Source: an uncultured Gammaproteobacteria bacterium
GTDB taxonomy: Bacteria; Pseudomonadota; Gammaproteobacteria; UBA9214
Length of the DNA: 64,000 nt
Reading direction: 5' to 3'
NCBI GenBank assembly: GCA_963773065.1
Contig: CAVYZN010000027.1
Span: 64,001 to 128,000, forward strand
The notes beneath the pieces are model-generated. The model was not told the origin of the DNA. It did no database searches and was given only the letters and a program-made list of their open reading frames with translations. Every line of letters starts with the position of its first letter. Within the stretch, counting starts at the first letter, position 1. Positions 45,789-63,856 of this stretch are shown one piece after another. Both the position numbers and the translations under genes were made by a program.

Positions 45789-45873
45789 TGTCCGCCCGGT
45801 GCTGTGATTCCATCATGATGGTTTCCCCCTTTATTATTTTTTATTGATGTTATCCCTATTTCTGGGGCTTCTC

Positions 45874-47466: not shown

Positions 47467-48357
47467 ATGCCGTTCGAAACAACAACAATAAAACAGGGAA
47501 AAATTCAAACGCAGTGTGTGTTCACATGCGCCGCGAAACAAGAACATAAAGAAAAGGCGGAAACCGGCCGTGAGCATTCGCCGCGGGTGAGTGGCGGGGG
47601 GCGGTTCAGTGCGCGTTGTGGGTGTGCGGCCTTCGCCCTGTTCGCCGCTGTCGTGTTCCCATGCCACGCGGCGCCTCTCAACGACACCGGCATCACCACC
47701 TGTTCCAACAACACCGCTAACGGCCTGCCATGTCCGCAGACGGATTTTCCCGGTCAGGATGCCGAGTATGGCCGCGATGCCGCCGCGGCGGCCGGCACCC
47801 TCACCAAGATCGGCGGCGGACGCGCTGGGTTCGACTTCACCAAGCTGGATGTCGACGGTAACGCACTACCAGCCTCGGCTACGGAGTGGTCATGCGTACG
47901 CGACAACGTCACCGGGCTGACCTGGGAAGTCAAGACCGCTGACGGCGGCCTGCGCGACCAGAACAATACCTACACTTGGTACAACCCCGATCCGAATACC
48001 AATGGTGGCGACGCCGGCACGCAAAACGGCGGGACATGTACCGGTGGTATCGCCTGCGACACCTATCATTATGCTCAGGCGGTGAACACAGCAGGTCTAT
48101 GCGGTGCGGGTGATTGGCGCTTACCATCGCAGGAGGAATTGATTTCCATCGTGGATTTTGGTATCCCTCACTCAGCGCCGCCTACCATTGACACCGCATA
48201 TTTCCCGTATACGCCAAGTTGGCTCTGGTGGTCGGCCTCTCCCAATGCTAGTGGTCCCGGCGGTGCGTGGGTCGTAAACTTCTTTAATGGCTCCGATGTG
48301 GTCGTAGAAACGTCTCTTGGTAACACACTCATTCGTCTCGTGCGCGGTGGACAGTGA
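47467..48357 (+). CDS. DUF1566 (Lcl/C-type-lectin-fold) exported protein
   Basis: LNDTGITTC, GQDAEYGRD, DNVTGLTWE, DWRLPSQEEL, IRLVRGGQ. Confidence 0.88.
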   Translation: MPFETTTIKQGKIQTQCVFTCAAKQEHKEKAETGREHSPRVSGGGRFSARCGCAAFALFAAVVFPCHAAPLNDTGITTCSNNTANGLPCPQTDFPGQDAEYGRDAAAAAGTLTKIGGGRAGFDFTKLDVDGNALPASATEWSCVRDNVTGLTWEVKTADGGLRDQNNTYTWYNPDPNTNGGDAGTQNGGTCTGGIACDTYHYAQAVNTAGLCGAGDWRLPSQEELISIVDFGIPHSAPPTIDTAYFPYTPSWLWWSASPNASGPGGAWVVNFFNGSDVVVETSLGNTLIRLVRGGQ

Positions 48358-48552
48358 ATTGATATACGGATTGGAGTGAGAAATATGCATGGATGGTGAC
48401 AGAGGTGTATTCGCGTAAATTGCAGATTGTATTCTCTCCTAGAAGGGCCATTACAAGAACAGGATGAAACGATGTCGGCTACATATCACTTGCAACTCGC
48501 AAACCTAAAACACGGAATTTTTCGCATACGCCGGTATGCAGGGGGTGCGATC

Positions 48553-50961
48553 GTGCAGCGCGTGATCACCGGATTGCTGCTTATCCTTCTGATGCTGACG
48601 GGCGAGTCCCAGGCACAGACCTGCAGCAGCAGTATTCCGCCAACGACGCCCACTAGCCGCTTCACCGATAACGGTGACGGTACGGTGACGGATAGCGCGA
48701 CCGGACTGATGTGGAAACAGTGCTCGGAAGGCCAGACAACGGCCGGTGCGGGCGGTTGCAGCGGCACGGCGTCGGCATTTACCTGGCAGCAAGCCTTGCA
48801 GCGGGCGCAACAGGTCAACGCGGGCGCGGCGGGCCAGCCGTTGGGTTATGCGGACTGGCGGGTGCCCAATATCAAGGAACTGATTTCCCTGGTGGAACGA
48901 GCCTGCACTTCCCCTGCCATTAACATAGGCCTGTTTCCACCCGTCCCCACATCGGAAGCGTTCGGGTTCTGGTCGGCTTCTCCCCAAGCCGACTTTCTCG
49001 GCGCCGCGTGGGTCATGTTCATCGGTCTTGGCGAATCCGGCTACGACAATGAATCCGTTGGCAATTACGTTCGTCTCGTGCGCGGCGGACAGTCTTTTTC
49101 GCCCCCGATAACTTCTCACTTCCGGCTGCCAACAAATCTAACTGATCAGACCGTTAATGTTTCATTTCCTATCACGATTGAAGCTCTGCTTTCTAACGGA
49201 CAAAGAGATACAAGTTTTAATGGTAAGGTCACGCTATCAACCAACTACTCATCCCATAAAGTTTTACCTAGTTCAATTGAACTTATAAACGGTGTTGCGA
49301 CGGTAGACGTTATAATTGACAGCGCTGGAACTGGTGCGAAGGTAATCGCGATGTATGGGTCGTTAAGCGGTAGTAGCAATGCATTTGATGTCGTGAATTC
49401 GGCGGCGGTACCTACGACCCTTTTTATTCAGTTGGTTGACCAAGCTGGGCAGCCGTTCATCAGCAATTCATTTTTAGATCTTAGTGATTCCGCCAACAAT
49501 TTTGAACATTATGAAAATTGGCCAAATAATCCCGGTAATGGAAGTTACGTTTACAAAAATTTAGATGCTGACCATTATACATTTCAGGCGATTTCGGGCG
49601 TAACTGGATTCGCTAGCGAGAAAATAACCATTGAAATAGCCACTGGCACGAGCCCACAAACACAAGTCGAAACAGTGAGGATGCGGGGTACAAGCAAGCC
49701 GCCGGTATTGCTGGTGCCGGGAATCATGGGTAGCACCATCGAAGGTATCGGACGATACAGTAACATGAATACCTACCCAGTTCTAAGTAAGAACCCTCCA
49801 ACACCAGCAAATGAGTTAAAGATTTTCAATAATTTTTTATGGTTGGCAGACGGTGGTTTTGATGATATCGCAACCGAACTAGAGACCGACTATACCGTCT
49901 ACGATGTACCCTGGGATTGGCGCGTCAGTCTTACCTGTCCCGAATTTACCTCCTGCCCGAATGCATGGAGGTTGTATCTAATGAAGGCGATTGATGATGC
50001 CAAGAAGGATCCGGAACATGACGGAATCATCAAATTCCAGAAAGTAGATATTGTGGCCCATAGCATGGGGGGGCTGCTTGTGCGGGCCTATATACAGAGT
50101 CCTGATTATAGAAATGATATCGATAAATTTGCCATGGTAGGCACACCTAACGAGGGCTCAGCAAAGGCTTATTATATGGCGGAAGGTGGTGACCCAGCTC
50201 GCGCAGATAGGATAGACGGCTGCACATTCCCAACTGATAAGCTAGGAATGAGTTGCTTTTACGCCAGGTCAACGGATGCGCTCTATAAGGCAATGAATTA
50301 CGGGCAAACACCGTTTGCTCAATATGAAAACTTTCTTACCGTACCCCCATATTATGTTATTACCACTAACTATGCAGTGGTGCCAGATCCGTCAAAACTG
50401 GTTCAGTTCTATGCCGAGAACGTGCCAACAGCACGCCAGCTACAAGCCACCTACAGTGTTTTAAAAACAAACAGCGGGACACCCCAAAAATTATTGGCAG
50501 AGCCTAACAAATTTCTGGAAGCGTTAAATTCTCAAAATTTGACTGATTACTATATTAATGAGTCTGATCCTAACCCGGACTCAAGAGTCAGGACAAAAAT
50601 ATTTATGTCAAATAATAATCTGACCTTGGAAATAATCAACGTTGCAGATCCTTTAATGTCATATCCAGAACAATATCATCCATACAAAGATGGCGTCCCA
50701 AGTGGTGAGGCCATAATGGATTACTTTGGAGATGGCACTGTGCTGGCGTGCTCTGCAGGCTTGCTTGGTGAACCAAGCTGCACGACCCGCTTGCTGTTTG
50801 GTGATATTCAATTGAATTGGGCTACGCTCCATATTGACTTCTTAAAGGGAAATGACAGTGAACACCTAGCGCTCATGAAGGCATTTAGTAAAGAGATTCA
50901 TGAGTTCTTGAATCGGGGAGGTAGCAATGAAAATGAGTTCGCATTTTCCTGTCCGCCCTGA
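48553..50961 (+). CDS. DUF1566 domain fused to beta-rich domains and an LCAT/lipase-like alpha/beta hydrolase
   Basis: RFTDNGDGTVTDSATGLMW, DWRVPNIKEL, VRLVRGGQ; later LVPGIMGS, AHSMGG, GTPNEGS, GDGTV. Confidence 0.82.
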   Translation: MQRVITGLLLILLMLTGESQAQTCSSSIPPTTPTSRFTDNGDGTVTDSATGLMWKQCSEGQTTAGAGGCSGTASAFTWQQALQRAQQVNAGAAGQPLGYADWRVPNIKELISLVERACTSPAINIGLFPPVPTSEAFGFWSASPQADFLGAAWVMFIGLGESGYDNESVGNYVRLVRGGQSFSPPITSHFRLPTNLTDQTVNVSFPITIEALLSNGQRDTSFNGKVTLSTNYSSHKVLPSSIELINGVATVDVIIDSAGTGAKVIAMYGSLSGSSNAFDVVNSAAVPTTLFIQLVDQAGQPFISNSFLDLSDSANNFEHYENWPNNPGNGSYVYKNLDADHYTFQAISGVTGFASEKITIEIATGTSPQTQVETVRMRGTSKPPVLLVPGIMGSTIEGIGRYSNMNTYPVLSKNPPTPANELKIFNNFLWLADGGFDDIATELETDYTVYDVPWDWRVSLTCPEFTSCPNAWRLYLMKAIDDAKKDPEHDGIIKFQKVDIVAHSMGGLLVRAYIQSPDYRNDIDKFAMVGTPNEGSAKAYYMAEGGDPARADRIDGCTFPTDKLGMSCFYARSTDALYKAMNYGQTPFAQYENFLTVPPYYVITTNYAVVPDPSKLVQFYAENVPTARQLQATYSVLKTNSGTPQKLLAEPNKFLEALNSQNLTDYYINESDPNPDSRVRTKIFMSNNNLTLEIINVADPLMSYPEQYHPYKDGVPSGEAIMDYFGDGTVLACSAGLLGEPSCTTRLLFGDIQLNWATLHIDFLKGNDSEHLALMKAFSKEIHEFLNRGGSNENEFAFSCPP

Positions 50962-52234
50962 TTGTCGTTTTTTAGGCAGAGTAGTCTGTGTTTTTTTCAT
51001 ACTAAGCCCATTAATTTCAAATGCCGCTCCATCACTATCGCTCTTCATACAAGGCAGAACACAGCCTTACTTAAGTCTCGTAAATGGAGGATCAATTGGC
51101 GTTAATCCGGTCACTAAGACACTGGAAAATTCGTTAGTAAATTCGGATATTGAGATTAAGGCTGACTTATCGAATATTCAGATGGTCAATCCTGCAGCGG
51201 GCACTTATAACGTAACATTGGCTGGAACCTCCGAAGACATAATCACTATATATGCCGCATATTCTGATGATATTAAAGGTGCCCACGAAGAACAGACTGC
51301 AATGGTCTTGCAGCATGGTAATCCCTTGTACTTCTCCGTTGTATATGATCCTCTGCAACAGCCTGCGCTACAGCTTATTTCGCCAGTAGCTCCACCTGCT
51401 TCGCCGAAAGCTGCTAATGTTGGTGGAACTGTTCAGCTTAGATGGCTTAGCCCATCCGACCCTACCATTACTGCGTATCGTGTTTATGGACGTCTCGAAG
51501 AAATTCCCAAGTTTTCTTTATTGGGTGAGACTCAGTCACTCTCCTTTGATACAGGCCATGTAGCGAGGAGTGGCGATGAAGGACAGCATTGGCAATATGT
51601 TGTAGTTGGAAAAAATGCGGCGAATAGGGAAAGTTTCTACTACATGCCAGTCAATAATCTCGTGCAAATGCTAGCGGTTTTTAGTGCCGCTCCAACCGAG
51701 GGTACTGTGCCTTTAAGTGTCTCATTCGAAGACTATTCTCAAGGCAGTCCGACTGCATGGGAATGGGACTTTGATGGTGATGAAATTGTAGACAGTACGG
51801 AACAGAACCCAACGCATACCTATACTCAAACAGGGAACTATGACGTCACGCTAAAAGTAACCGGTTCCTTAGGTATCTCTACCCGCTCAGAACAGGGTTA
51901 CATCACGATATTTGCGGATACTGTGGATACCGATGGGGATGGCGTTTTCGATGGAAGCGACAACTGCAGTCTGAAGGCCAATCCGACGCAGCTCGACAGC
52001 GACCACGATGGCTTCGGCAACCAGTGTGACTGTGATTTCAACCAGGACAATTTCTGCGGCGGCCCGGACTTCACGCTATTTATCGGCTGTTTCAATAAAC
52101 CAACGGGCGGTAATCCGGTCTGCGAGGCAGCGGACATGAACGGCGACGGTTTTGTCGGGGGGCCGGACTTCACCCTGTTTGTTGGCGGGTTCAATAAACC
52201 GCCGGGGCCATCCGGGCTGGCTGTGAAGAATTGA
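50927..52234 (+). CDS. Exported FN3-like + PKD + TSP3 repeat protein with C-terminal dockerin-like domain
   Basis: Signal peptide; VQLRW..YRVY; WEWDFDGD..NPTHTY..GNYDVTL; DTDGDG..DNC; twin DxNxD loops. Confidence 0.8.
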   Translation: MKMSSHFPVRPDCRFLGRVVCVFFILSPLISNAAPSLSLFIQGRTQPYLSLVNGGSIGVNPVTKTLENSLVNSDIEIKADLSNIQMVNPAAGTYNVTLAGTSEDIITIYAAYSDDIKGAHEEQTAMVLQHGNPLYFSVVYDPLQQPALQLISPVAPPASPKAANVGGTVQLRWLSPSDPTITAYRVYGRLEEIPKFSLLGETQSLSFDTGHVARSGDEGQHWQYVVVGKNAANRESFYYMPVNNLVQMLAVFSAAPTEGTVPLSVSFEDYSQGSPTAWEWDFDGDEIVDSTEQNPTHTYTQTGNYDVTLKVTGSLGISTRSEQGYITIFADTVDTDGDGVFDGSDNCSLKANPTQLDSDHDGFGNQCDCDFNQDNFCGGPDFTLFIGCFNKPTGGNPVCEAADMNGDGFVGGPDFTLFVGGFNKPPGPSGLAVKN

Positions 52235-52317
52235 AAAACTTGTCCGATGCGAGTCGGATTTAGGGGGCATTAAAAGCGGCCAGCATTTCTCACCGGGCGG
52301 CGACAGAACGACATTAA

Positions 52318-52427
52318 GGAAGGTCTGATTAAACCTGTCATTCCCGCGCAAGCGGGAATCTAGTCCATCCAAGATCAGTGGGTTACTGGATCCCCGCTTT
52401 CGCGGGGATGACCTGTTCAGAGTTGCT
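52318..52427. mobile_element. MITE/REP element with IS5-like ends, flanked by TTAA
   Basis: ttaa|ggaaggtctga...attcccgcgcaagcgggaat...tcagagttgct|ttaa; similar left part at 44376-44424. Confidence 0.55.
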
Positions 52428-52444
52428 TTAAGGGAGGAGCGTTT

Positions 52445-54388
52445 ATGGTCAGGCCACCCGAGTCAGGCGTCATCCCCGTCGTATATCCGTTAGGTTTTCC
52501 CAAAGCAAGTTTTTGCTCGTTGTCTTCAGCGTTACTCGCACTTGTGGTTGGCATTGCGAGCATATCGTGGACTGAGGTAACGGCAAATGAACAAACCCAA
52601 AAAACCACGAATCAAGCCGCGGATACAGTCGGCGGTCAGGGCGCGACATCGCTAAGACCGCGCTGGACACCGGCGAAACCCGCAAAGACCCTCCTCAAAC
52701 CATGGCAGGAACGAAACCGCGTCATTGTTAAGTTTGTCGAGGGCAGCGACATTAGATTGCGGCAAGAGAGCTTAGTAAGCCTCAAGGGTCGTGATATCGG
52801 ACGAGTCCGTGACGTGCTGGCCCGATATCGTATCGGCGCAAAGGAGCTTCGACGGTATTTCACCCGGTCTGAAGCATTGCTTAGCCAAGAGAAGCGCAGC
52901 GGCGAAGCGCGCAGCGGTCGTCAACTTGCCGATTTGAACTTGTATTTTGAACTTTCAGTCGCAGCGGACATCGACGTTGGCGCGTTATGCGACGACTTGA
53001 ATGCCCTGGATATTGTTGAACTCGCCGAACCGGCGCCAAGGCCGGCACCGCCGCCCGTGGACCTAGCCCCGCCGACTCCAGACTTTTCCTTCCTACAGAG
53101 TTATCGAGACGCACCACCCGGCATTGGTGTTAGCAATCTCAACATCAACGGCATAGACGGCAACGGCATTGCTTTTGTTGATATTGAATATAGCTGGCTG
53201 TTGAATCACGAAGATCTTGAATTGCCAAGTACGGCGAATATAGATACCGCAACAGCATCTGATCCCTTTTCGGACAGTAATCATGGTACCGCAGTGCTTG
53301 GCGAAATTGTCGGCGGTGATAACGGTTACGGAGTCGTAGGAATAGCGCCGGCGGCGTCGGCTTTTGTTGCACCGGCGAGTACCCTGGAGTATGGCTACAA
53401 TGTGGGACGGGCCGTCAATTTGGCTGCGACGTCTCTGAACTCTGGTGACGTGATACTAATCGAACAACAAGCGGCTGTATGTGGAGGGGTTTGTGATCAA
53501 ACGCAGGTCGGTTGTGGCCCAGTAGAGTGGAATCAATCTTTGTATGATGCGATCGCTAATGCAACTGCTAATGGTATTGTTGTCGTCGAAGCGGCCGGTA
53601 ACGGTAACGTGAACCTCGACGACTCCGCCTGCCTTTCACAATTTGATCCAGCGGTGCGCGACTCCGGAGCGATCATCGTCGGCGCGGGTTTCCCTGCTAC
53701 ACATGAAAAATTAAGCTTTTCAACTTACGGTAACCGCGTAGATGTCCAAGGGTGGGGGGAATTTGTGACCACTACCGGCTACGGCGACAAGTTCGATCCT
53801 GGTGATGCTCGCCAACGCTACACGACTAATTTTTCTGGAACATCGAGCGCGTCGCCCATGGTTACCGGTGCAGTCCTGGCCATTCAAGGAGTACGTAAAG
53901 CGGCTGGATTAACCCTGCTATCCCCGGACCAACTGCGCCAGTTACTCGTTGATACCGGTACCCCTCAAGCCGGCAGCACACACATCGGCCCGTTACCGAA
54001 TGTCAGCGCTGCGCTGGAACACGACAGCGATGGAGATGGTGCCGTAGATGTACTCGACAACTGTCCCGCGATCGCCAATGCGGGCCAGGGAGATACCGAT
54101 GGGGACGGTGTGGGTGATGCTTGCGATAACTGCCTGGCAGTGGCCAATGCGGATCAGCGCGATACCGATGGCGACGGTTACGGCAACCGTTGCGACTGTG
54201 ATTTCAACCAGGACAATTTCTGCGGTGGTCCGGACTTCACCCTGTTCATTGGCTGTTTCAATAAACCAACGGGCGGTAATCCGGTCTGCGAGGCAGCGGA
54301 CATGAATGGCGACGGTTTTGTCGGTGGACCCGATTTCACCCTGTTCGTTGGCGGGTTCAATGGCCCGCCAGGGCCATCCGGGCTGTGA
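52445..54388 (+). CDS. S8 subtilase + TSP3 repeats + dockerin-like domain (copy 1)
   Basis: VDIE (Asp), NHGTAVLG (His), AAGNG, GTSSASP (Ser); shared C-terminal tag. Confidence 0.9.
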   Translation: MVRPPESGVIPVVYPLGFPKASFCSLSSALLALVVGIASISWTEVTANEQTQKTTNQAADTVGGQGATSLRPRWTPAKPAKTLLKPWQERNRVIVKFVEGSDIRLRQESLVSLKGRDIGRVRDVLARYRIGAKELRRYFTRSEALLSQEKRSGEARSGRQLADLNLYFELSVAADIDVGALCDDLNALDIVELAEPAPRPAPPPVDLAPPTPDFSFLQSYRDAPPGIGVSNLNINGIDGNGIAFVDIEYSWLLNHEDLELPSTANIDTATASDPFSDSNHGTAVLGEIVGGDNGYGVVGIAPAASAFVAPASTLEYGYNVGRAVNLAATSLNSGDVILIEQQAAVCGGVCDQTQVGCGPVEWNQSLYDAIANATANGIVVVEAAGNGNVNLDDSACLSQFDPAVRDSGAIIVGAGFPATHEKLSFSTYGNRVDVQGWGEFVTTTGYGDKFDPGDARQRYTTNFSGTSSASPMVTGAVLAIQGVRKAAGLTLLSPDQLRQLLVDTGTPQAGSTHIGPLPNVSAALEHDSDGDGAVDVLDNCPAIANAGQGDTDGDGVGDACDNCLAVANADQRDTDGDGYGNRCDCDFNQDNFCGGPDFTLFIGCFNKPTGGNPVCEAADMNGDGFVGGPDFTLFVGGFNGPPGPSGL

Positions 54389-54636
54389 AAAATTGAATAT
54401 AGGTCCGAAGCAAGCATGATTTAAGGGGCATCAAAAGCAGCGGATTACGTAATTTCCTTTTTATAGACAGTGAGTAACAGCCCTCAATTCAATAACGGCA
54501 GTTCAATGATTCCGGCGGAGTCATGAACTTGACGAGATAATTTGTAAACTGTATTGTTGCGAAAATTAATAATAACGATAGTTGCAGTTCTTGAATTACG
54601 GAGATCCTACTAACCGAAGTAAGAGGATCTTCAATA

Positions 54637-55275
54637 ATGAACAAGTTCACTTGGTTTATCTTACGCCTTGTTGGTGGTGTCTGTGGGTGCATGTTCGCAG
54701 TTACCCAATCCCAGGCTGTAACCATTGGTCTCACACTCGGGAGCGACACGGATCCACTCACGGTAACTAACGGCGATACGATCACCTTCACGGTGGGAAT
54801 GACTCCCGTGGAGGCGATTACCGGCTATACGCTGGATATCCGCTATGATTCCACGGAGCTGGATTTTCAGACAGCCGCCCAGTTGGTACCTTTCTTCGGC
54901 GGTGCCTTTGTTCCACCTTTTAACCTAGACCCGGCATCGACGGCGGGCGATTCGGGCAGCACCGGTTTGGCAACTTCAGACAGCGGTCGGGCTTCCGTCT
55001 TGCAGGTGAGTGATTCGCAGCCTGTAGGGGATCTTTTCAGTCTGACGTTTACCGTGTTAACGCCTGTATCCGATGGTCTGGCAGATCTGACGGTCGGGCT
55101 GCTCAATTCCGGTGCGGATGATATCAACCCTGCAGTCGGGGGTGCCGCGTTCACCATCGATCCAGACACGGTCAGTGCATCGATCGGGGCCGTTCCTGTT
55201 CCTGCCGCCATCTGGCTTTTCGGTTCCGGTCTGATGGGGATGATTGGACTAGCCAGAAGCAAAAAAGCGGCTTAA
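54637..55275 (+). CDS. Cohesin-like protein with VPLPA/PEP-CTERM sorting signal (copy 1)
   Basis: Signal peptide; GDTITFTV..ITGYTLDIRYDSTEL..GDLFSLTFTV; VPVPAAIWLFGSGL-TM-RSKK. Confidence 0.78.
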   Translation: MNKFTWFILRLVGGVCGCMFAVTQSQAVTIGLTLGSDTDPLTVTNGDTITFTVGMTPVEAITGYTLDIRYDSTELDFQTAAQLVPFFGGAFVPPFNLDPASTAGDSGSTGLATSDSGRASVLQVSDSQPVGDLFSLTFTVLTPVSDGLADLTVGLLNSGADDINPAVGGAAFTIDPDTVSASIGAVPVPAAIWLFGSGLMGMIGLARSKKAA

Positions 55276-55378
55276 CAGCTTCAGACGTGATGACGTGATT
55301 GCGGCGGCCTGTCGGTCGCCGTATTCGTTTGGTGGTTGGTGGTGTTGCCCTGAGTTTGGCCGACCCTGTCACATTACC

Positions 55379-55702
55379 TCACAGCACCGCATCCAGTCCC
55401 TTGCGATCGATCAGATTGAGCAGCTTCAAGGACGGGCCGCTCGGCTTCTTGTCGCCTATCTCCCACTTCCGCACGGTCGACAGACTCGTGTTGAGCACGG
55501 CTGCCAGAACGGCCTGGCTTAGATGGAGGTTTTTCCGTAGCGCGCGGATCTTCGCGGCGTTGTATTCGGGAATGGGTTCCATGCACAGCGCGCCGTACTT
55601 CTGCATCTTGCGCTTGTCGATGAATCCGAGACGATGCAAGTCACTCGCCATCTCGTGGACGGCTTCGAGGATTCGGCTCTTGGCCTTACGTTTGGTGGTC
55701 AT
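55379..55702 (-). CDS. XRE/HigA-like HTH antitoxin; only a short 3' remnant of its toxin lies upstream
   Basis: KIRALRKNLHLSQAVLA..TVRKWEIGDKKPSG; upstream ALEDDSLQEICHD fragment. Confidence 0.85.
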   Translation of the reverse strand: MTTKRKAKSRILEAVHEMASDLHRLGFIDKRKMQKYGALCMEPIPEYNAAKIRALRKNLHLSQAVLAAVLNTSLSTVRKWEIGDKKPSGPSLKLLNLIDRKGLDAVL

Positions 55703-55860
55703 GGCAAATCTCCTGCAGCGAATCGTCTTCGAGCGCCTCACTCAACTGCCGAGCAGTGGACTTTACGGATAAGGGCTCTTATTCTTCTATACATACTGCG
55801 GTTTGTTAGTAGATACCGAAGACACATTGAGCCAGGCGAACCGTTAACGAGGACCACACC

Positions 55861-56109
55861 ATGACGACGTTGCAAGTCAAACTGGAGTTACCTGATCCCC
55901 TTGCCAAAGAGGCGGCGACCATGGGTTTGCTGGAACCACAGGCTTTACAAACACTGTTGCGCGAGGCGGTGCGTAATCGCCACATCGCACGGCTCGCGGA
56001 AGCGCGTCGCAAGATCGCTGAGGCGGGCATTCCGCCTATGACGATGGAAGAGATTCAAGCCGAGATCGAGGCTGTCCGCGCCGGGCGCCGCACAAAAAAT
56101 ACTGACTGA
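55861..56109 (+). CDS. Putative antitoxin
   Basis: 82 aa, MTMEEIQAEIEAVR; coupled to PIN gene. Confidence 0.7.
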   Translation: MTTLQVKLELPDPLAKEAATMGLLEPQALQTLLREAVRNRHIARLAEARRKIAEAGIPPMTMEEIQAEIEAVRAGRRTKNTD

Positions 56110-56528
56110 TGCGGCTGGTACTCGATACGAACATCGTCGCCTCGGGTCTCCTGTGGAACGGTGTGCCGGCACAATTGGTCGATGCGGCGCGGGCGGATGA
56201 AATAGAGATATTCACCAGTCGCATGTTGCTTGCCGAACTCACGCGCGTTTTGTGCCGCGCCAAGTTCGCCAAGGTAATCGCCGTGAGCGGTTTGTCGCTC
56301 GATGAGTTGATGCTTAGCTACGCCGAACTCGCTACCCTCGTTACACCCGAACCAATTCCCGCAACCGTCCTCAACGATCCCGATGACGATCACGTACTCG
56401 CCTGCGCGCTCGCAGCCAAGGCCGACCTCATCGTCTCCGGAGATCGACATCTGCTTACGCTAAAAAGTTTTCAGCAGATTCCGATCGTGACGGCGGCGGA
56501 AGCCGTGCGGATCACCAGCGGACGATAA
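56109..56528 (+). CDS. PIN-domain putative toxin
   Basis: LVLDTNIVASG, DPDDDHVLACA, IVSGDRHLL. Confidence 0.9.
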   Translation: MRLVLDTNIVASGLLWNGVPAQLVDAARADEIEIFTSRMLLAELTRVLCRAKFAKVIAVSGLSLDELMLSYAELATLVTPEPIPATVLNDPDDDHVLACALAAKADLIVSGDRHLLTLKSFQQIPIVTAAEAVRITSGR

Positions 56529-56609
56529 CCGTTTCTGGTCCCCCGGGTTACGTGAACTGTTCCGCCAGCGATGACTATCTCTTCGCCATGGCCCAGGCGC
56601 GCGAGGTGC

Positions 56610-56654
56610 TGGTAGGCAGCGCGGTGGCAGATTCATATCGACGAGCAGTTTCAT
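56610..56654 (-). pseudogene. Truncated DUF5615 PIN-like gene
   Basis: MKLLVDMNLPPR start overlapping the DUF433 stop, then similarity is lost. Confidence 0.55.
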
Positions 56655-56881
56655 GCATTGGCCAGCATGACCTCGCGTTCCTCGGCGCGCCATGCCGCGT
56701 AGCGAAGCGCTTGCATGATGTCCTCGCGTTCGAGGTAGGGATAGTCGGTGAGGATTTCATCGACGCTGCGTCCCGCTCCGATCTGGCCGACGATCATGCC
56801 AACCGTGAGGCGCATGCCACGGATGCACGCCTTGCCGCCCATCACGTCAGGCTGCTGGGTGATGCGATCCAATCGTCCCAT
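56651..56881 (-). CDS. DUF433 family protein
   Basis: RITQQPDVMGGKACIRGMRLTV..ILTDYPYLEREDI. Confidence 0.92.
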   Translation of the reverse strand: MGRLDRITQQPDVMGGKACIRGMRLTVGMIVGQIGAGRSVDEILTDYPYLEREDIMQALRYAAWRAEEREVMLANA

Positions 56882-57216
56882 GCTCCGCTCCTTATCGAAA
56901 CTCATTGCCTTGCTATCGGATTGATATAGGGGTTCAAGTTACCTATAAGCAAACAGGAACGATCATCCCTGTGCAAGAAGAATCATTGGCATACGTATAA
57001 ATACGTAGAGAAAAATTTCCTTGCTCAAACGGAGATTCTGTGGCTAATACCTAAGATAACAGCAGTGCCATTGTTACGATAAAGGTATGATGAGTTCAGC
57101 GATTCTAGTTTCATCTTACTGTTGCTCGACGTTGATTCTTTGCCGTAGTCGGCGATGCAGCTCCTAAATGCCAGGCCAGGAACAAGGTCACAGAGAAATA
57201 ACAGGGAGGAGCGTTT

Positions 57217-59139
57217 ATGGTCAGGCCGCTCGAGTCAGGCGTCATCCCCGTTGTATATCCGTCAGGTTTTCCCAGAGCAAGTTTTTGCTCGTTGTCTTCA
57301 GCGTTACTCGCACTTGTGGTTGGCATTGCGAGCATCTGTTGGACTGAGGTAACGGCAAACGAACAAAACCAGAAGACCACGAATCAAGCCGCGGCTACAG
57401 TCGGCGGTCAGGGCGCGACATCGTCAAAACCGCGCTGGACACCGGTGAAACCGGCAAAGACCCTCCTCAAACCATGGCAGGAACGAAACCGGGTCATTGT
57501 TAAGTTTGTCGAGGGCAGCGAGATTAGATTGCGGCAAGAGGGCTTAGTAAGCCTCAAGGGTCGTGATATCGGACAAGTCCGCGCCGTGCTGGCTCGATAC
57601 CGTATCGGCGCAAAGGAGCTTCGACGGTATTTCACCCGATCCGAAGCATTGCTGAACCAAGAGAAGCACAGCGGCGAAGCGCGCAGCGGGCGTCAACTCG
57701 CCGATTTGAACTTGTATTTTGAAATTTCAGTCGCGGCGGACGTTGATGCTGGCGCGTTATGCGATGATTTGAATGCCTTGGATATTGTTGAACTCGCCGA
57801 ACCGGCGCCAATGCCGGCACCGCCGCCCGTGGATCTAGCCCCGCCAACTCCAGACTTTTCCTTCCTACAGAGTTATCGAGACGCACCACCCGGTATTGGT
57901 GTTAGCAATCTAAACATCGGCGGTATTGATGGCAACGGCATTGCGTTTGCGGATGTGGAATTCAGTTGGCTATTGAACCACGAGGACCTTGAACTCCCGA
58001 GTACCACCAATATCGACACGGCAACTGCATCTGATCCCTTTTCGGACAGTAATCATGGGACCGCGGTGCTTGGCGAAATTGTCGGCGGTGATAACGGCTA
58101 CGGGGTTATAGGAATAACGCCGGCGGCGTCGGCTTTCGTTGCACCGGCGAATACCGTAGAGTTCGGCGAGAATGAGGCACGGGCTATTAACTTGGCCGCG
58201 GCGACTCTGAACGCGGGTGATGCGATACAGATCGAACTACAAAATACAGTATGCGGGTTGAATAATGGTCCAATGGAGTGGTACCAACCCGAGTTTGATG
58301 CGATCGCGAATGCAACTGCCAATGGGATTGTTGTCGTCGAAGCGGCCGGGAATGGAGGCGTGAATTTAGACGATCCCAGTTGTGAATCGCGCTTTGACAG
58401 AGCAGTACGTGACTCCGGCGCGATCATCGTCGGCGCGGGTTTCCCAGCTACACATGAAAAATTAGACTTTTCCGATTACGGTAACCGCGTGGATGTTCAA
58501 GGGTGGGGGGTATTGGTGACCACTACCGGCTACGGCGACAAGTTCGATCCTGGTGATATTCGCCAACGCTACACGACTAATTTTACTGGAACATCGAGCG
58601 CGTCGCCCATGGTTACCGGTGCGATCCTGGCCATTCAAGGAGTACGTAAAGCGGCTGGATTAACCCTGCTATCCCCGGACCAACTGCGCCAGTTACTCGT
58701 TGATACCGGTACCCCTCAAGCCGGCAGCACACACATCGGCCCGTTACCGAATGTCAGCGCTGCGCTGGAACACGACAGCGATGGAGATGGTGCCGTAGAT
58801 GTACTCGACAACTGTCCCGCGATCGCCAATGCGGGCCAGGGAGATACCGATGGGGACGGTGTGGGTGATGCTTGCGATAACTGCCTGGCAGTGGCCAATG
58901 CGGATCAGCGCGATACCGATGGCGACGGTTACGGCAACCGTTGCGACTGTGATTTCAACCAGGACAATTTCTGCGGTGGTCCGGACTTCACCCTGTTCAT
59001 TGGCTGTTTCAATAAACCAACGGGCGGTAATCCGGTCTGCGAGGCAGCGGACATGAATGGCGACGGTTTTGTCGGTGGACCGGATTTCACCCTGTTCGTT
59101 GGCGGGTTCAATGGCCCGCCAGGGCCATCCGGGCTGTGA
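57217..59139 (+). CDS. S8 subtilase + TSP3 repeats + dockerin-like domain (copy 2)
   Basis: ADVE, NHGTAVLG, AAGNG, GTSSASP; same tag. Confidence 0.9.
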   Translation: MVRPLESGVIPVVYPSGFPRASFCSLSSALLALVVGIASICWTEVTANEQNQKTTNQAAATVGGQGATSSKPRWTPVKPAKTLLKPWQERNRVIVKFVEGSEIRLRQEGLVSLKGRDIGQVRAVLARYRIGAKELRRYFTRSEALLNQEKHSGEARSGRQLADLNLYFEISVAADVDAGALCDDLNALDIVELAEPAPMPAPPPVDLAPPTPDFSFLQSYRDAPPGIGVSNLNIGGIDGNGIAFADVEFSWLLNHEDLELPSTTNIDTATASDPFSDSNHGTAVLGEIVGGDNGYGVIGITPAASAFVAPANTVEFGENEARAINLAAATLNAGDAIQIELQNTVCGLNNGPMEWYQPEFDAIANATANGIVVVEAAGNGGVNLDDPSCESRFDRAVRDSGAIIVGAGFPATHEKLDFSDYGNRVDVQGWGVLVTTTGYGDKFDPGDIRQRYTTNFTGTSSASPMVTGAILAIQGVRKAAGLTLLSPDQLRQLLVDTGTPQAGSTHIGPLPNVSAALEHDSDGDGAVDVLDNCPAIANAGQGDTDGDGVGDACDNCLAVANADQRDTDGDGYGNRCDCDFNQDNFCGGPDFTLFIGCFNKPTGGNPVCEAADMNGDGFVGGPDFTLFVGGFNGPPGPSGL

Positions 59140-59387
59140 AAAATTGAATATAGGTCCGAAGCAAGCATGATTTAAGGGGCATCAAAAGCCGCGGATTACG
59201 TAATTTCCTTTTTATAGACAGTGAGTAACAGTCCTGAATCCAATAACAGCAGTTCAATGATTCCGGCGGAGTCATGAACTTGACGAGATAATTTGTAAAC
59301 TGTATTGTTGCGAAAATTAATAATAACGATAGTTGCAGTTCTTGAATTACGGAGATCCTACTAACCGAAGTAAGAGGATCTTCAATA

Positions 59388-60026
59388 ATGAACAAGTTCA
59401 CTTGGTTTATCTTACGCCTTGTTGGTGGTGTCTGTGGGTGCATGTTCGCAGTTACCCAATCCCACGCTGTAACCATTGGTCTCACACTCACGAGCGACAC
59501 GGATCCACTCACGGTAACTAACGGCGATACGATCACCTTTACGGTGGGAATGACCCCCCTGGAGGCGATTACCGGCTATACGCTGGATATCCGCTATGAT
59601 TCCACGGAGCTAGATTTTCAGACAGCCACACAGTTGGTACCCTTCTTCGGCGGCGCCTTCGTTCCACCTTTTAACCTGGACCCGGCATCGACTGCGGGCG
59701 ATTCGGGCAGCACCGGTTTGGCAACTTCAGACAGCGGTCGGGCTTCCGTCCTGCAGGTGAGTGATTCGCAGCCTGTAGGGGACCTTTTCAGTCTGACATT
59801 TACCGTGTTGACGCCTGTATCCGATGGTCTGTCCGATCTGACGGTCGGGCTGCTCAATTCCGGTGCGGATGATATCAACCCCGCCGTCGGGGGTGCCGCG
59901 TTCACCATCGATCCAGATACGGTCAGTGCATCGATCGGGGCTGTTCCTGTCCCCGCCGCCATCTGGCTTTTCGGCTCCGGACTGCTGGGGTTGATTGGAA
60001 TAGCCAGAAGCAAAAAAGCGACTTAA
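59388..60026 (+). CDS. Cohesin-like protein with VPLPA/PEP-CTERM sorting signal (copy 2)
   Basis: 212 aa, few substitutions versus 54637-55275. Confidence 0.78.
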   Translation: MNKFTWFILRLVGGVCGCMFAVTQSHAVTIGLTLTSDTDPLTVTNGDTITFTVGMTPLEAITGYTLDIRYDSTELDFQTATQLVPFFGGAFVPPFNLDPASTAGDSGSTGLATSDSGRASVLQVSDSQPVGDLFSLTFTVLTPVSDGLSDLTVGLLNSGADDINPAVGGAAFTIDPDTVSASIGAVPVPAAIWLFGSGLLGLIGIARSKKAT

Positions 60027-60169
60027 CAGTTTCAGACGTGATGACGTGATTGCGGCGGCCTGTCGGTCGCCGTATTTCTTTGATGGTGTAACTCTGAGTT
60101 TGGCCGATCCTGATGCCATGGTCAGATAACAGCCAAGAAATGAAAATAACAGCCCCTCGCCGGGCAGTT

Positions 60170-60330
60170 GCTTGGCCGGTCATTGGCGTTGTCCTCCTCG
60201 CGGATGCCCAGTTCCTCGTCATCCAGATAACAGGCCGGGTCCTCCCACCACGGGTCGCCGGTCAACTGGAAGGCGCGCACCCGCGTATTGCCACCGCGAT
60301 GTCGCGGAAGCCGCGGACGCGGTAGCGACC
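60170..60330 (-). pseudogene. Degenerate duplicate of the nirJ 3' end
   Basis: [32 protein letters not shown] identical in protein to the nirJ C-terminus at ~62710-62805. Confidence 0.88.
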
Positions 60331-60690
60331 GACTCGCCAATCTCAGTGGACTTTACGGAAAAGGGCTTTTATTCCTATACATGCCGGGCTTGTTTAACTG
60401 ACCGCAGTCAGGACAAAAAAATTCAATACTAATACTAAGGAATCAGGCAAGGATGCCGGCCAGGCAGTAGCGGTAGGGATGACCTTTGCGTGTGAGTGAG
60501 GAAAGAAAGAAAACCGGCGAAAGGGAGACGTATTCAGATCGGATATGGGCCAGCAGCCGGGGGAGTCAGCCAGGTATTCAGGGGAAGAGGTCTGACGGAT
60601 AGTGGCCTTTTTCGGTTGGAGTCATAGGGAATTGGTTGGCTATACTTTCATTGTGGACAACCTCATCGGGTCACAGGACATGACCACATC

Positions 60691-62526
60691 ATGAAGCGGC
60701 GTATTTCACCATTGCTTCGCAGCCTGTGTCTGGCGTCGATCTTTCTGGCACCCCTCGCCATGGCGGAGATCGGGCCTGATCCACCCAAACTCTCTCCCGA
60801 AGGCAAACTCGGGATCATGGGCGACAGTCTGGCCTTGGGTATCCACGCCTCGGAAATGTGCGGCAATGCCGACGCCTATGAATGCGCGCAGCAGGCCCTT
60901 GGCGCCTCCAGTCCCGACTGGAGTTATGTGGCAGCCGACAAGAGCTGGTCGATTGCCAGCCTGCTCGGCTTTGACCAGGCGCATATCGTTGCGGCCTATG
61001 TTGGTGGCGCAGAATGGAAGGACGCGCTCAACCAGGCCGTGACCGTTATGGCCGATCCTCAGGTCGAGGCCGTCTTCATCGGCCTCGGGGCAAACAATGT
61101 CTGCGTGCCACAGGGTCATGATTACAGTGATGATCTTGCGACCATTGCCGGGCACATCGACGCGACCCTGACTTATCTCACGGATCACCTGCCCGCCGGG
61201 GGGCGTATCTACTGGAGCGGGGTGCTGGATGTCCTGCAGCTTCGCGAACTCATGCGCGGGCGCGACCACAATTACTGGTTTGAAACCTGCCAGGGTGCCT
61301 GGGACCTGGACGCGAACAAGATCAAGGACGGGGCGGCGAATGATGTGTGTGATCACATCTTCAATCACACCGCCTGCCAGCTTACCAGCGCCGTCGAGGA
61401 AGCCAAGGACGCGCTGACTGATCTACTGCTCAATACCTGGCGTGACCTCGAGGGCGTGGATGAGGGGCCCTGTGGCAAGATCCTGAGCAGCCGTTCGACC
61501 GACGCTGACCGGGAGGAGGCCCGACAATTCAACCTCGCGCTTAACCAACTGATGTCCGCCAAGGCGGCGGAATACGACGGCCGGAACGGCGTCGCGGTGT
61601 ATTACAGTGACCGCATCTTCGAGGCATCGGCTAACCTCAGGCCCTATCATGTCTCCCGCCTGGACTGTTTTCACCCGAGCCGGGCCGGGCAGATATTCCT
61701 TGCCAATGAAACCTGGAGGGGATTTAACCCCCTCACCGAGTCGGCCGGCCGCTACTTTTTTGACGAATTTGACAGCCAGGACTATTGCGCCCAGGAATAC
61801 ACCACGTGGGGTTCATGCTGGACCGAGATCGGCGAGAATAACGGGCCCTCGGCCGGTGATATCCAGATCAACGTGCATGAGCTCCGGGTGCGGGACAAGG
61901 ACAAGGGTATCATGCGCAGCCTCGACCTGGACGGCATGCAAGCCGCCTGGCTCCAGTTCAACTGGCGGCGCGACGGACTGGACAACAATGACGATTATGT
62001 CTCAATCGACGTGTCACCGGATGCCGGCATGACCTGGTTTCAACAGGACCGCATCAAGGGCGATGGCGATGACTACAATACCCACCGCGGCTACTACTAT
62101 GACATCACCCCCTATGCCACGGGGAACACGCTGCTCCGTTTCAAGAGCTCGAGTGATCTGGGTGATCACGACGAGGTGTTCTTTGACAATATAACCGTCT
62201 TTGGCTGGGGTCCAATCGTGCAGACCCAGGACACCGACGGCGACGGGGTTCCCGATGCGAGCGACAACTGCATCAGCCAATCGAATGCCGACCAGCGCGA
62301 CACGGACGGCGACGGCTACGGTAACCTTTGCGACTGTGATTTCAACCAGGACAATTTCTGCGGCGGTCCGGACTTCACTCTCTTCATCGGCTGTTTCAAT
62401 AAACCAACAGGCGGTGATCCGGTCTGCGAGGCAGCGGATATGAATGGCGACGGTTTTGTCGGTGGGCCAGATTACACTTTGTTTGTTGGCGGGTTCAATG
62501 GCCCGCCGGGGCCATCCGGGCTGTGA
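60691..62526 (+). CDS. Exported SGNH/GDSL hydrolase + beta-rich domain + TSP3 + dockerin-like domain
   Basis: Signal peptide; MGDSL, GANN, DCFHP; shared C-terminal tag. Confidence 0.82.
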   Translation: MKRRISPLLRSLCLASIFLAPLAMAEIGPDPPKLSPEGKLGIMGDSLALGIHASEMCGNADAYECAQQALGASSPDWSYVAADKSWSIASLLGFDQAHIVAAYVGGAEWKDALNQAVTVMADPQVEAVFIGLGANNVCVPQGHDYSDDLATIAGHIDATLTYLTDHLPAGGRIYWSGVLDVLQLRELMRGRDHNYWFETCQGAWDLDANKIKDGAANDVCDHIFNHTACQLTSAVEEAKDALTDLLLNTWRDLEGVDEGPCGKILSSRSTDADREEARQFNLALNQLMSAKAAEYDGRNGVAVYYSDRIFEASANLRPYHVSRLDCFHPSRAGQIFLANETWRGFNPLTESAGRYFFDEFDSQDYCAQEYTTWGSCWTEIGENNGPSAGDIQINVHELRVRDKDKGIMRSLDLDGMQAAWLQFNWRRDGLDNNDDYVSIDVSPDAGMTWFQQDRIKGDGDDYNTHRGYYYDITPYATGNTLLRFKSSSDLGDHDEVFFDNITVFGWGPIVQTQDTDGDGVPDASDNCISQSNADQRDTDGDGYGNLCDCDFNQDNFCGGPDFTLFIGCFNKPTGGDPVCEAADMNGDGFVGGPDYTLFVGGFNGPPGPSGL

Positions 62527-62637: not shown

Positions 62638-63856
62638 TCATCCGGCGTGGCGGATGGTGCGGGTTGCGAGCCCGGCGGGTTCCGGGCGGTCGTCGGCATA
62701 GTCCGCCGCGCGGATGCCCAGTTCCTCGTCATCGAGGTAGCAGGCGGGGTCTTCCCACCAGGGGTCGCCGGTCAACTGGAAGGCGCGCACCCGGGTGTTG
62801 CCGCCGCAGATGTCGCGGAAGCCGCAGACGCGGCAGCGGCCCTTCAACGGCCGCGGGCTGGCCTTCAGGCCGGCCATGAGCGGGTCGCGGGTGTCCACCC
62901 AGATCTCCGAGAACGGGCGCTCCTTCACGTTGCCGAGGTTGTAGTTCCACCAGAAGGTGTCGGGATGCACGTTGCCCAGGTTGTCGATGTTGGCGATGTT
63001 GACGCCGGAGGAATTGCCGCCCCAGCGCACCAGGCGTTCGCGCAGCTCGTCGTAGCGTTCCGGCAGGCGGCGCTGCACCCACTGGAGCAGGTAGACGCCG
63101 TCGGCGTCGTTGTTGCCGGTGACGAACTCGCGCCGGCGGCCGGCCTGCACGTCGGCCCAGCAGGCGTCGAACAGCAGGTCCATCAGCCGGCGCGTCGTCT
63201 GGTGCACGACGTCGGATTTGCGGTTGCGGTTGCCGCGGCCGGCGTAGTTCAGGTGCGAGACGTAGAGCTTGTCGACCCGTTCGTCTTCCATGAGCTGGAG
63301 AATGAGCGGCAGCTCGTGGGCGTTGTCCTGGGTCGGGGTGAAGCGCATGCCCACCTTGATGCCGGCCTCGCGGCACAGGCGGATGGCCTGCAGCGAGGCG
63401 TCGAAGGCGCCCGCTTTCTGGCGGAAGCGGTCATGGGTGTCGCGGATGCCGTCGATGCTGATGCCGACGTAGTCATAGCCGACCGCGGCGATGTCCCCGA
63501 TGCGGCCGGCATCGATGAGCGTGCCGTTGGTGGACAGGCCGACGTAGAAGCCGAGCGCCTTGGCGCGCCGGGAGATGTCGTAGATGTCCGGGCGCAGCAG
63601 CGGCTCGCCGCCGGAGAGGATCAGCACCGGCACCCCGAAGCCGCGCAGGTCGTCCATGACGGCGTAGACCTGGGCGGTGCTCAACTCGCCGGGGAAGTCG
63701 ATATCGGCCGAGATCGAATAGCAGTGCTTGCAGGTCAGGTTGCAGCGGCGGATCAGGTTCCAGATGACCACCGGGCCGCTCGGCTTGCGCGCTGCCGGTT
63801 GCGCCGCGCTCCGGCGGCTGCGCGAGCGCCTGCAGATAGTGCGAAATGCGAAACAT
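62638..63856 (-). CDS. nirJ: Heme d1 biosynthesis radical SAM protein; apparent frameshift near 63790
   Basis: MFRISHYL start; [45 protein letters not shown]. Confidence 0.93.

Follow-up and report, generated by a model that had tools for sequence, protein, structure and literature searches.

Tagged exported proteins and candidate anchors interleaved at one locus

The DNA analysed here (hereafter the window) is a stretch of 64,000 nt from the genome of an uncultured gammaproteobacterium (GenBank assembly GCA_963773065.1, contig CAVYZN010000027.1, positions 64,001 to 128,000 of the forward strand). It contains four genes coding for exported proteins that share a C-terminal tag related to dockerins, which we call cargo 1 to 4, interleaved with two genes coding for 212-aa proteins related to cohesins, which we call cohesin A and cohesin B (Table 1). 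An initial annotation of this DNA had proposed that the 212-aa proteins are surface anchors that capture the tagged proteins, and the six open reading frames (ORFs) to which it referred were all recovered where it had placed them, on the plus strand. It had also read each of the two 212-aa genes as a signal peptide, a beta-rich domain and a VPVPAA-transmembrane-basic tail, and these parts can indeed be recognized in the ORFs. All six ORFs are intact, and catalytic motifs are readable in the enzymes among them (GDS and DxxH in the GDSL protein, His and Ser motifs in the S8 proteases).

The bodies of the cargo proteins belong to unrelated families, with Pfam matches above cut-off to PKD_4 in cargo 1 (56.4 bits), to Peptidase_S8 in cargo 2 and cargo 3 (74.0 and 71.8 bits) and to Lipase_GDSL in cargo 4 (31.8 bits). 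The description of four exported proteins ending in TSP3 repeats plus a common tag holds for the tag and for the PKD, S8 and SGNH domains; it fails for the FN3 domain attributed to cargo 1, for which the Pfam scan of this protein gave PKD only and no FN3 at E<=0.1. As to the TSP3 repeats, they pass the TSP_3 cut-off of 25 bits in the two proteases (33.3 in cargo 2 and 33.2 in cargo 3) and stay below it in cargo 1 (21.6) and cargo 4 (20.3).

A cassette of about 2.9 kb, made of one protease gene and one cohesin gene, is duplicated in the window. The protease bodies are 65-95% identical between the two cassettes, and the stretch 53765-54664, which spans the TSP3 repeats, the tag, the intergenic DNA and the start of the cohesin gene, is 97-100% identical. 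The tag, whose recurrence cannot be put down to chance, is part of a 263-nt DNA repeat that occurs four times in the window with 81-100% identity and extends about 20 nt beyond the stop codon. By tblastn, the four tag copies are 93-100% identical at the amino-acid level, and no further close copy was found in the 3.84-Mb genome. A terminator-like hairpin lies downstream of each cohesin gene and none lies between protease and cohesin. The promoter-like sites upstream of the cohesins carry little weight, because such sites are no commoner in the region (eight found) than in shuffled sequence (mean 9.2).

Table 1. Coordinates of the genes and sites discussed in the text (window positions, except for the exosortase).
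Feature	Position	Strand	Remarks
Cargo 1: exported PKD protein, 435 aa, TSP3 + C-terminal dockerin-like tag	50927..52234	+	tag core 52019-52219
Cargo 2: S8 subtilase, 647 aa, TSP3 repeats + dockerin-like tag	52445..54388	+	tag core 54185-54385
Promoter-like site upstream of cohesin A	54529..54557	+	TTGACG-17-TATTGT, 9/12; weak
Cohesin A: signal peptide, cohesin-like domain ~27-184, VPVPAA-transmembrane-RSKKAA tail, 212 aa	54637..55275	+	
Terminator-like hairpin ending the protease-cohesin A unit	55300..55323	+	10-pair stem, 7 GC pairs, T-rich tail
Cargo 3: second S8 subtilase, 640 aa, paralogue of cargo 2, TSP3 + tag	57217..59139	+	tag core 58936-59136
Promoter-like site upstream of cohesin B	59280-59308		identical to the cohesin A site
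Cohesin B: 212-aa paralogue of cohesin A, 96% identity	59388..60026	+	tail VPVPAAIWLFGSGLLGLIGIARSKKAT
Terminator-like hairpin ending the protease-cohesin B unit	60051..60074	+	identical to the cohesin A hairpin
Cargo 4: GDSL/SGNH hydrolase, 611 aa, TSP3 + tag	60691..62526	+	tag core 62323-62523
Cytochrome cd1 nitrite-reductase gene	43235-44263	-	only D1 positions 2-141 of 368 matched in the ORF
Radical-SAM/SPASM gene	62638-63771	-	
XrtD, split ORFs: 348-aa exosortase part + 206-aa EpsI part	C6:35983-37582 (L001:762-2361)	-	

The C-terminal tag is related to dockerins

The tag common to the four cargo proteins is 67 residues long. As read from the ORFs, it contains two calcium loops, DFNQDNFCGGPD followed by FTLFIGCF and DMNGDGFVGGPD followed by FTLFVGGF; the two 12-residue loops are those initially described, and the FTLF said to follow each of them is replaced by YTLF after the second loop of cargo 4. 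The arrangement that we looked for in a dockerin, i.e. a 12-residue calcium loop with Asp or Asn at positions 1, 3, 5 and 12 plus a helix, occurring twice within some 60-70 residues, is present in the tag. A hidden Markov model (HMM) of the tag, A4, matches cargo 1 with E=1.2e-38. When the tag profile A2 was compared with the PDB, the six best matches were all dockerin-bearing chains (E 5e-5 to 1.4e-3), with both repeats aligned, and the matches after them were EF-hand proteins. The Pfam family Dockerin_1 (PF00404) also matches all four tags, over profile positions 3-50 of 57 and with scores below its cut-off that are discussed further on. Together with the PDB matches, this bears out the identification of the tag as a dockerin homologue. 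The possibility that the tag belongs to a known class of C-terminal secretion signals was considered and discarded, NCBIfam giving only a weak match to NF041540 (GC-type dockerin; 15.3 bits against a cut-off of 29).

We found 137 longer proteins carrying the 67-aa tag (E<=1e-3), with 65-100% identity over the tag and from many samples, and the details that follow refer to the 120 of them that are listed. No more than 10 residues separate the tag from the C-terminus in 116, and 115 have the full set of five cysteines. Precomputed PF00404 annotations exist for 11. The cargo bodies, according to precomputed Pfam annotations, include nine S8 proteases, GDSL esterases, a matrixin, a polyhydroxybutyrate (PHB) depolymerase, GH17, glucose/sorbosone dehydrogenases, a BNR sialidase-like protein, a metallophosphatase, DUF11, FN3/PKD repeat proteins, RHS repeats and multihaem cytochromes. 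A role in the degradation of protein and lipid, as initially suggested, is in line with the proteases and the GDSL hydrolase of the window; the cargo of the relatives is far wider.

In other gammaproteobacterial genomes, the equivalent tag has an ordinary dockerin sequence (e.g. DLNQDGAVNFVDLGLLK followed by DLNGDGAVNFLDLGLLK), preceded by TSP3 repeats and followed by PPGPSG. Since these canonical-type tags have the same flanks, the tag of the window can be regarded as a cysteine-rich variant of a wider TSP3-dockerin-PPGPSG family. The PPGPSG(L) motif itself, found downstream of the second dockerin helix both in the window tags (e.g. 54365-54385) and in the canonical-type tags elsewhere, falls outside the dockerin model. 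Covariation of the cysteines at positions 5 and 13 was considered as a sign of a disulfide bond and set aside: a cysteine is missing from five of the 120, both positions being affected in two of them and a single one in three, which is not conclusive. Two stop-free frames of about 1,200 aa (L011:860-4558 and L013:74-3706) contain a tag-like module near the N-terminal end (residues ~99-178) instead of the C-terminus, and lie directly upstream of a cohesin gene from the subfamily farthest removed from cohesin A (32-35% identity to it).

The 212-aa proteins are related to cohesins

Because the window sequences, taken singly, score just under every curated threshold, we turned to profiles of the families. 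For the 212-aa protein there are 33 relatives of full length with 47-96% identity, all of them unnamed or hypothetical. None of the 33 carries a precomputed Cohesin domain, and the Pfam Cohesin model matches 23 of them at E<=0.01 (best E 1e-4). The full-length family profile, A1, gave 12 PDB matches at E<=10, of which 11 are cohesins; in the best of these (3l8q_A, E 5.4e-7) the alignment spans the first strands only. Homology over the whole domain of about 140 residues was obtained with hhalign, by comparing the domain-only family alignment (A5) with 12 segments from other genomes that score above the cut-off of Pfam Cohesin, PF00963 (the A6 set): the probability is 95.7%, with E 9.8e-9 over 107 columns (query 15-142 of 158, template 8-121 of 131). 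An HMM of these segments searched against all 21,996 frames of 80 aa or more in the genome matched cohesin A and cohesin B and nothing else.

A search of 1.84 billion representative proteins with A5 returned 494 matches at E<=1e-3, including long proteins with up to 23 matched stretches that are scaffoldin-like in look. Among the best 150 matches, 38 are small proteins of at most 300 aa, and 25 of these 38 have a PEP-CTERM-type tail by pattern. An ESM Atlas model of P0003, a homologue with 78% identity, comes closest in structure to three clusters: one that is 99% Cohesin (TM 0.65 over 169 residues), one labelled SLH+Cohesin (TM 0.54) and one of Pseudomonadota labelled PEP-CTERM+Cohesin (TM 0.66). 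Pfam, profile, hhalign and homologue-model results all agree with the proposal that the 212-aa proteins are cohesin homologues with a tail of the VPLPA/PEP-CTERM type. The nearest solved cohesins bear names that we take to be those of type II (anchoring) cohesins, whereas type I had been named initially. A prediction of the complex between residues 27-184 of cohesin A and the tag gave scores of 0.15 and 0.29 against a mark of 0.32, in a run made without controls, and weighs on neither side of the question of binding.

The tail, the exosortase and the type II secretin

At the extreme C-terminus of the cohesins, AVPVPAAIWLFGSGLMGMIGLARSKKAA consists of a Pro-rich motif, a hydrophobic helix and a basic cluster, so that AVPVPAAIWLFGSGL...RSKKAA forms a tripartite C-terminal signal; the reading of the tail as VPVPAAIWLFGSGL, a hydrophobic stretch and RSKKAA was correct. 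Within the family, PF07589 (PEP-CTERM) is matched at E<=0.01 by 16 of the 33 members, and VPEP or IPEP stands in the same place in 9 of 33, a replacement that is expected if the tail is an exchangeable exosortase signal. Eight ORFs of the genome have tails of the VPLPA/PEP-CTERM type, and three of these are cohesin-like genes.

The genome also contains the exosortase that such a tail calls for and that the initial annotation had suggested looking for. There is a single one, on contig C6 (PF09721, 250.7 bits), and the best NCBIfam model for it is TIGR04152, the VPLPA-CTERM-specific XrtD, which matches two adjacent, overlapping ORFs (333.4 bits over positions 3-268 of 486 and 224.4 bits over 284-486, neither reaching the cut-off of 400 bits). 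The genome further encodes a GspD type II secretin (571.9 bits).

Tag and cohesin occur side by side in other genomes

Tag and cohesin genes are found together beyond the window. Six of 11 related contigs carry both modules, and the remaining five are all at most 2.4 kb long. In a gammaproteobacterial metagenome-assembled genome (L003), an orthologue of the tagged GDSL gene lies directly upstream of a cohesin gene that is 79% identical, and the intergenic DNA between tag and cohesin is conserved with that of the window. As the GDSL gene precedes the cohesin there and the proteases precede it here, the unit of tag, spacer and cohesin carries different upstream cargo. Eleven contig sizes are common to the relatives of the cohesin and those of the tag, a circumstantial match that rests on equal size only; one such contig of 19,391 nt would hold five tagged proteins and one cohesin, joined by the same equality of size.

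We then surveyed a sample of 400 genomes of the class. The full-length profile A1 was positive in 71 of them, including G141; since nearly all of these matches are to the sorting tail (profile positions ~165-208), the survey was redone with the domain-only profile A5, which was positive in 9 genomes. The tag profile A4 was positive in 20 and Pfam Cohesin PF00963 in 26. Of the 20 genomes with the tag, 12 also have a cohesin match; among the 380 without it, 22 do.

Apart from the present genome, 19 were tag-positive; in 12 of them we inspected a single tag locus. In eight of the 12, belonging to eight different families (G068, G095, G124, G133, G176, G182, G204 and G331), small cohesin-like genes coding for 164-289 aa directly adjoin tagged genes, and seven of these eight loci have a tail of the VPxPA type, the tail at G068 being without the motif. 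A profile of these neighbour genes together with a further gene of the present genome described below (A8) gave 13 PDB matches at E<=1, all 13 of them cohesins and over about 120 positions; the closest solved relatives are 3l8q_A, 5g5d_A and 2bm3_A, which we take to be anchoring or adaptor cohesins. A8 scored 96.2% against A5 and 94.8% against the set of Pfam cohesin segments. The expectation that genomes bearing the tag mostly carry cohesin anchors, usually next door, is borne out by the 12 matched genomes and the eight adjoining loci. Across loci, the identities to tag and cohesin are 91/79, 81/66, 76/60, 61/42, 53/35, 40/32 and 42/28 percent.

At one locus the two modules even occur in the same protein. 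A 319-aa protein (L050:409-1368, minus strand, on contig C100 of G095) consists of a cohesin-like domain (PF00963, E 6e-4, positions 6-136 of 139), a TSP3 repeat and a canonical-type dockerin that exceeds the Dockerin_1 cut-off with 26.0 bits; the next gene, truncated where the contig ends, is again cohesin-like. This arrangement resembles that of an adaptor scaffoldin in a Gram-negative genome.

The genome of the window contains a second, divergent cohesin-dockerin pair, on contig C14 (C14:38366-42415; L002:6364-10415, minus strand). An intact gene coding for a 193-aa cohesin-like protein with a VPxPA-type tail lies there directly downstream of a gene tail that encodes TSP3 repeats and a canonical dockerin. 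An ISL3-type transposase separates that TSP3-dockerin tail from the 563-aa DUF7453 protein of the upstream gene, and the second dockerin repeat resumes only past a 1-nt frameshift, leaving an orphan socket next to a broken plug.

Genomic setting

The system lies in a segment of lower G+C content that extends from about 44.5 to 62.6 kb with a minimum of 0.45; G+C is 0.45-0.55 across 48001-60000, against ~0.57-0.69 in most of the remaining window. The segment is flanked by a cytochrome cd1 nitrite-reductase gene on one side and a radical-SAM/SPASM gene on the other, which suggests an acquired island within denitrification genes. The cohesin-dockerin system looks horizontally acquired and patchy.

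Genes for a TraT-like lipoprotein (208.8 bits) and for two proteins of the Lcl_C/DUF1566 type lie just upstream of the system (44569-50961); one of the latter two, with 844 aa, is fused to an LCAT/alpha-beta-hydrolase lipase domain, and the tag is absent from all three. The Lcl_C domains of relatives are combined with the VPLPA tail in some cases (P0037, P0041, P0048; L047:698-1393) and with the tag in another (P0068). Between the two protease-cohesin cassettes, an HTH_3/MqsA-like gene of the antitoxin type (55379-55741, minus strand) and a PIN_3 gene of the toxin type (56109-56528, plus strand) lie on opposite strands and without obvious partners. The GDSL gene is bracketed by a 124-nt direct repeat with 87% identity (60174-60297 and 62684-62807). 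Because the second copy sits within the 3' end of the radical-SAM/SPASM gene, the first can be recognized as a duplicated fragment of that gene, and the repeat may be the footprint of an insertion or rearrangement that brought in the GDSL cargo gene. A search of sequencing runs with 53700-55400 returned no RNA run and only two DNA runs with small shares (0.19 and 0.06), which are uninformative on expression and habitat.

A candidate tethering system and its alternatives

The sequence-level expectations of the initial annotation were all borne out, and none of the outcomes that it had named as refuting was encountered, which gives its proposal partial support. On balance, we think it reasonably probable that the locus encodes a non-cellulosomal cohesin-dockerin tethering system of a diderm bacterium. 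From the homology of both modules, the presence of XrtD and GspD, and the conserved adjacency and co-occurrence of tag and cohesin, we infer a mechanism in which four Sec-exported proteins carry at their C-terminus the calcium-binding TSP3 repeats, a cysteine-rich dockerin with two near-identical loops and the PPGPSG end, and in which the two near-identical 212-aa proteins, each a single cohesin with a VPLPA-CTERM sorting signal, would serve as the socket. XrtD would cleave the VPLPA signal, and the cohesin would be passed to the exterior, either to the cell surface or to an exopolysaccharide matrix. The tagged enzymes would cross the outer membrane, probably by the type II system, dock on the cohesin through calcium-dependent dockerin-cohesin binding, and thereby be kept near the cell. 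Some dockerins show a dual binding mode, and the near-identical halves of the tag would permit one here. Moreover, the finding that near-identical tag-intergenic-cohesin DNA has different cargo in a related genome suggests that cargo is exchanged by recombination within the tag.

A number of observations weigh against this proposal. The window sequences remain below the curated cut-offs on both sides of the presumed pair: Dockerin_1 scores are 21.9, 16.6, 18.2 and 16.1 bits for cargo 1 to 4, and 18.4-20.1 bits for the window tags in a six-frame search of the genome, against a cut-off of 22.9; Cohesin (PF00963) gives 22.9 bits for cohesin A and 21.7 for cohesin B, over residues 44-80 only, against 24.1. 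The same is true of the sorting tail of cohesins A and B with VPLPA-CTERM (TIGR03370; 18.3 and 21.4, cut-off 25.35), PEP_CTERM (TIGR02595; 15.5 and 15.7, cut-off 16) and PEP-CTERM PF07589 (19.5 and 19.2, cut-off 20.7). Position 9 of the loop is Gly in both window loops, canonical dockerins having Asn, Asp or Ser there. The model of P0003 is of moderate confidence (pTM 0.61). The split of XrtD could be a frameshift, an assembly error, a genuine split or an inactive gene. In the class sample, whose members are kin, so that the counts are non-independent, the A5 and PF00963 searches yielded no cohesin match for eight of the 20 genomes with the tag; one of these eight, G176, had a cohesin-like neighbour on inspection, and negatives of the PF00963 genome search mean little since it missed the present genome entirely (0 candidates). 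No cohesin-like gene was found in the examined stretch at four of the 12 inspected loci (G010, G129, G212, which meets the contig end, and G302). Two same-family genomes of the sample have no cohesin domain, which makes the system patchy. Finally, gene adjacency may reflect co-regulation without contact.

This last point leads to a different account, in which the tag would be a calcium-dependent module for stabilisation or for binding to a matrix (e.g. exopolysaccharide or lipopolysaccharide), the cohesin-like PEP-CTERM protein would be a separate matrix protein, and the two would merely share a regulon. Such a regulon could accommodate the other VPLPA-tailed proteins of this genome and of relatives, with their unrelated domains such as Lcl_C/DUF1566, the tagless Lcl_C proteins just upstream of the system, the tag-positive genomes without a cohesin match and the lack of a canonical ligand at position 9 of the window loops. 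We nevertheless judge it unlikely, given that both modules are specifically homologous to the two halves of a known binding pair, that the pairing recurs in immediate adjacency in at least eight families of the class sample with unrelated cargo, and that L050 unites cohesin and dockerin in one protein, an adaptor layout that would be sensible only if the modules bind. Tag identity also declines in step with cohesin identity, a trend that shared descent alone would give too. Contact between tag and cohesin is compatible with another role of the latter, that of a carrier or holder which would bind the tag while in the inner membrane, so that the cargo either rides the exosortase/exopolysaccharide route or is held inactive until release. 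Such a role could draw on the sorting signal in the tail of the cohesin, which spans the membrane, and on the XrtD of the genome. It would also agree with the tight linkage of cargo and cohesin genes, the only terminator-like hairpin of each unit following the cohesin, and with the five conserved cysteines of the tag, which suggest folding in an oxidising periplasm. The type II secretin nevertheless makes a conventional route available, and four tags stand against two near-identical cohesins in the window, and up to five tagged proteins against a single cohesin on what is apparently one metagenomic contig, as judged by equal contig size only. With such ratios a shared dock fits better than a one-to-one carrier, and we know of no exosortase system that carries passengers, a point against the carrier for which no specific search was made; we consider this role quite improbable.

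Very improbable, in our estimation, is that the modules are relics without present function on a decaying or selfish island. The low G+C of the segment, the TraT, PIN and HTH antitoxin-like genes in or beside it, the broken pair on contig C14, the split XrtD and the same-family genomes without cohesin would all be in keeping with decay. Against it stand the intact window ORFs with their readable catalytic motifs, the high identity of tags (93-100%) and cohesins (96%) while the protease bodies have diverged to 65-95%, and the conservation of the tag in 137 proteins from many samples.

If the tethering interpretation is extended beyond this genome, exosortase-sorted single cohesins and dockerin-tagged proteins might be a general way for diderms to retain exoenzymes, adhesins and multihaem cytochromes at the surface or within the matrix. 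They would do so with orthogonal specificities, the cysteine-rich tag with its five conserved cysteines, possibly disulfide-stapled, having its own cohesin subfamily beside the canonical pair, and with the tag-intergenic-cohesin unit acting as a recombination handle for swapping cargo. We see the case for and against this wider proposal as evenly balanced.

The locus joins two open questions, the role of cohesins and dockerins outside cellulosomes and the function of most PEP-CTERM substrates, both of which could be addressed by experiment with a pair of small soluble domains. Should the two bind, a function would follow for a class of exosortase substrates, and it would become clear how diderms retain secreted proteases, lipases and other enzymes near the cell. 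Binding would also provide new plug-and-socket pairs, possibly disulfide-stabilised and mutually orthogonal, for Gram-negative surface display. The cargo of the relatives (proteases, esterases, matrixin, PHB depolymerase, glycosidases, multihaem cytochromes) suggests broad ecological use.

Comparison with known systems

Cohesin-dockerin assembly is a textbook device of Gram-positive cellulolytic bacteria. We found neither a multi-cohesin scaffoldin nor a carbohydrate-binding module (CBM) nor a dockerin-bearing glycoside hydrolase among the window cargo and the three single-cohesin-like genes of the genome, and without scaffoldin, CBM or glycoside hydrolase the system is not a cellulosome. For modules outside cellulosomes, the standard catalogue of cohesin- and dockerin-like sequences is said to be that of Peer et al. 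2009 (FEMS Microbiol Lett 291:1). Our searches of the full-text literature retrieved no description of a cohesin or dockerin paired with PEP-CTERM or exosortase, and the coverage of proteobacterial and single-cohesin proteins by Peer et al. could bear on novelty; VPLPA-CTERM was found in full texts only in an unrelated context. Some database clusters are automatically labelled with both the Cohesin and the PEP-CTERM Pfam names. The architecture is therefore visible in databases, yet undescribed in the literature as far as our searches reach.

In the genome of Saccharophagus degradans 2-40, two ORFs with dockerin-like motifs and six with cohesin-like modules have been noted and a binding test proposed (PMC2386152). 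That case resembles ours in that cohesin- and dockerin-like modules occur in a gammaproteobacterium, outside the cellulolytic Firmicutes. Beyond what the passages on these modules describe, there is here a link to PEP-CTERM and exosortase, a cassette of tagged gene plus anchor gene, and a TSP3-dockerin-PPGPSG tag. A review of anaerobic methanotrophic (ANME) archaea gives the function of cohesin and dockerin modules outside cellulosomes as unknown and treats exosortase separately.

TSP3 repeats in exported surface proteins combined with C-terminal sorting are also a feature of MtsC and MtsD of Myxococcus (NF047638, NF047639), which belong to MYXO-CTERM cell-cell cohesion. The two proteases match NF047638 with 68.1 and 68.0 bits over the repeats only, far from the cut-off of 350, and so are not members; unlike in MtsC/MtsD, the sorting signal is here on the partner protein and not on the TSP3 protein.

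A PEP-CTERM protein involved in flocs is PepA (NF033554). To our knowledge, PEP-CTERM proteins are structural or matrix proteins of mostly unknown function. Their sorting by exosortases was reportedly described by Haft et al. in 2006 and 2012. A paper on cyanoexosortase B states that exosortases traffic PEP-CTERM proteins to the outside of Gram-negative cells (PMC12188702). As in these systems, the cohesins have a Pro-rich motif, a hydrophobic helix and a basic cluster, with a dedicated exosortase in the genome; unlike in the known PEP-CTERM proteins, the passenger domain is of a type that docks to other proteins, and candidate partners can be identified next door.

Proteins with a single cohesin and an anchor include the SLH-anchored SdbA, OlpA and OlpC of Clostridium (Acetivibrio) thermocellum and the sortase/LPXTG-anchored ScaE of Ruminococcus flavefaciens. 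Two of the PDB matches of A8, 2bm3_A and 2b59_A, are of SdbA. By analogy, the closest functional counterparts of the system would be these Gram-positive anchoring proteins, here fitted with an exosortase signal. The resemblance lies in one cohesin joined to a C-terminal envelope anchor, encoded near dockerin-bearing partners. The anchor, however, is of the VPLPA/PEP-CTERM type for a diderm exosortase instead of SLH or LPXTG/sortase, and the partners are the enzymes themselves and not a scaffoldin. Compared with cellulosomal anchors, the system is free of carbohydrate-active enzymes, CBM and multi-cohesin scaffoldin, and its dockerin differs from cellulosomal ones in following TSP3 repeats, in having five conserved cysteines and in its PPGPSG end.

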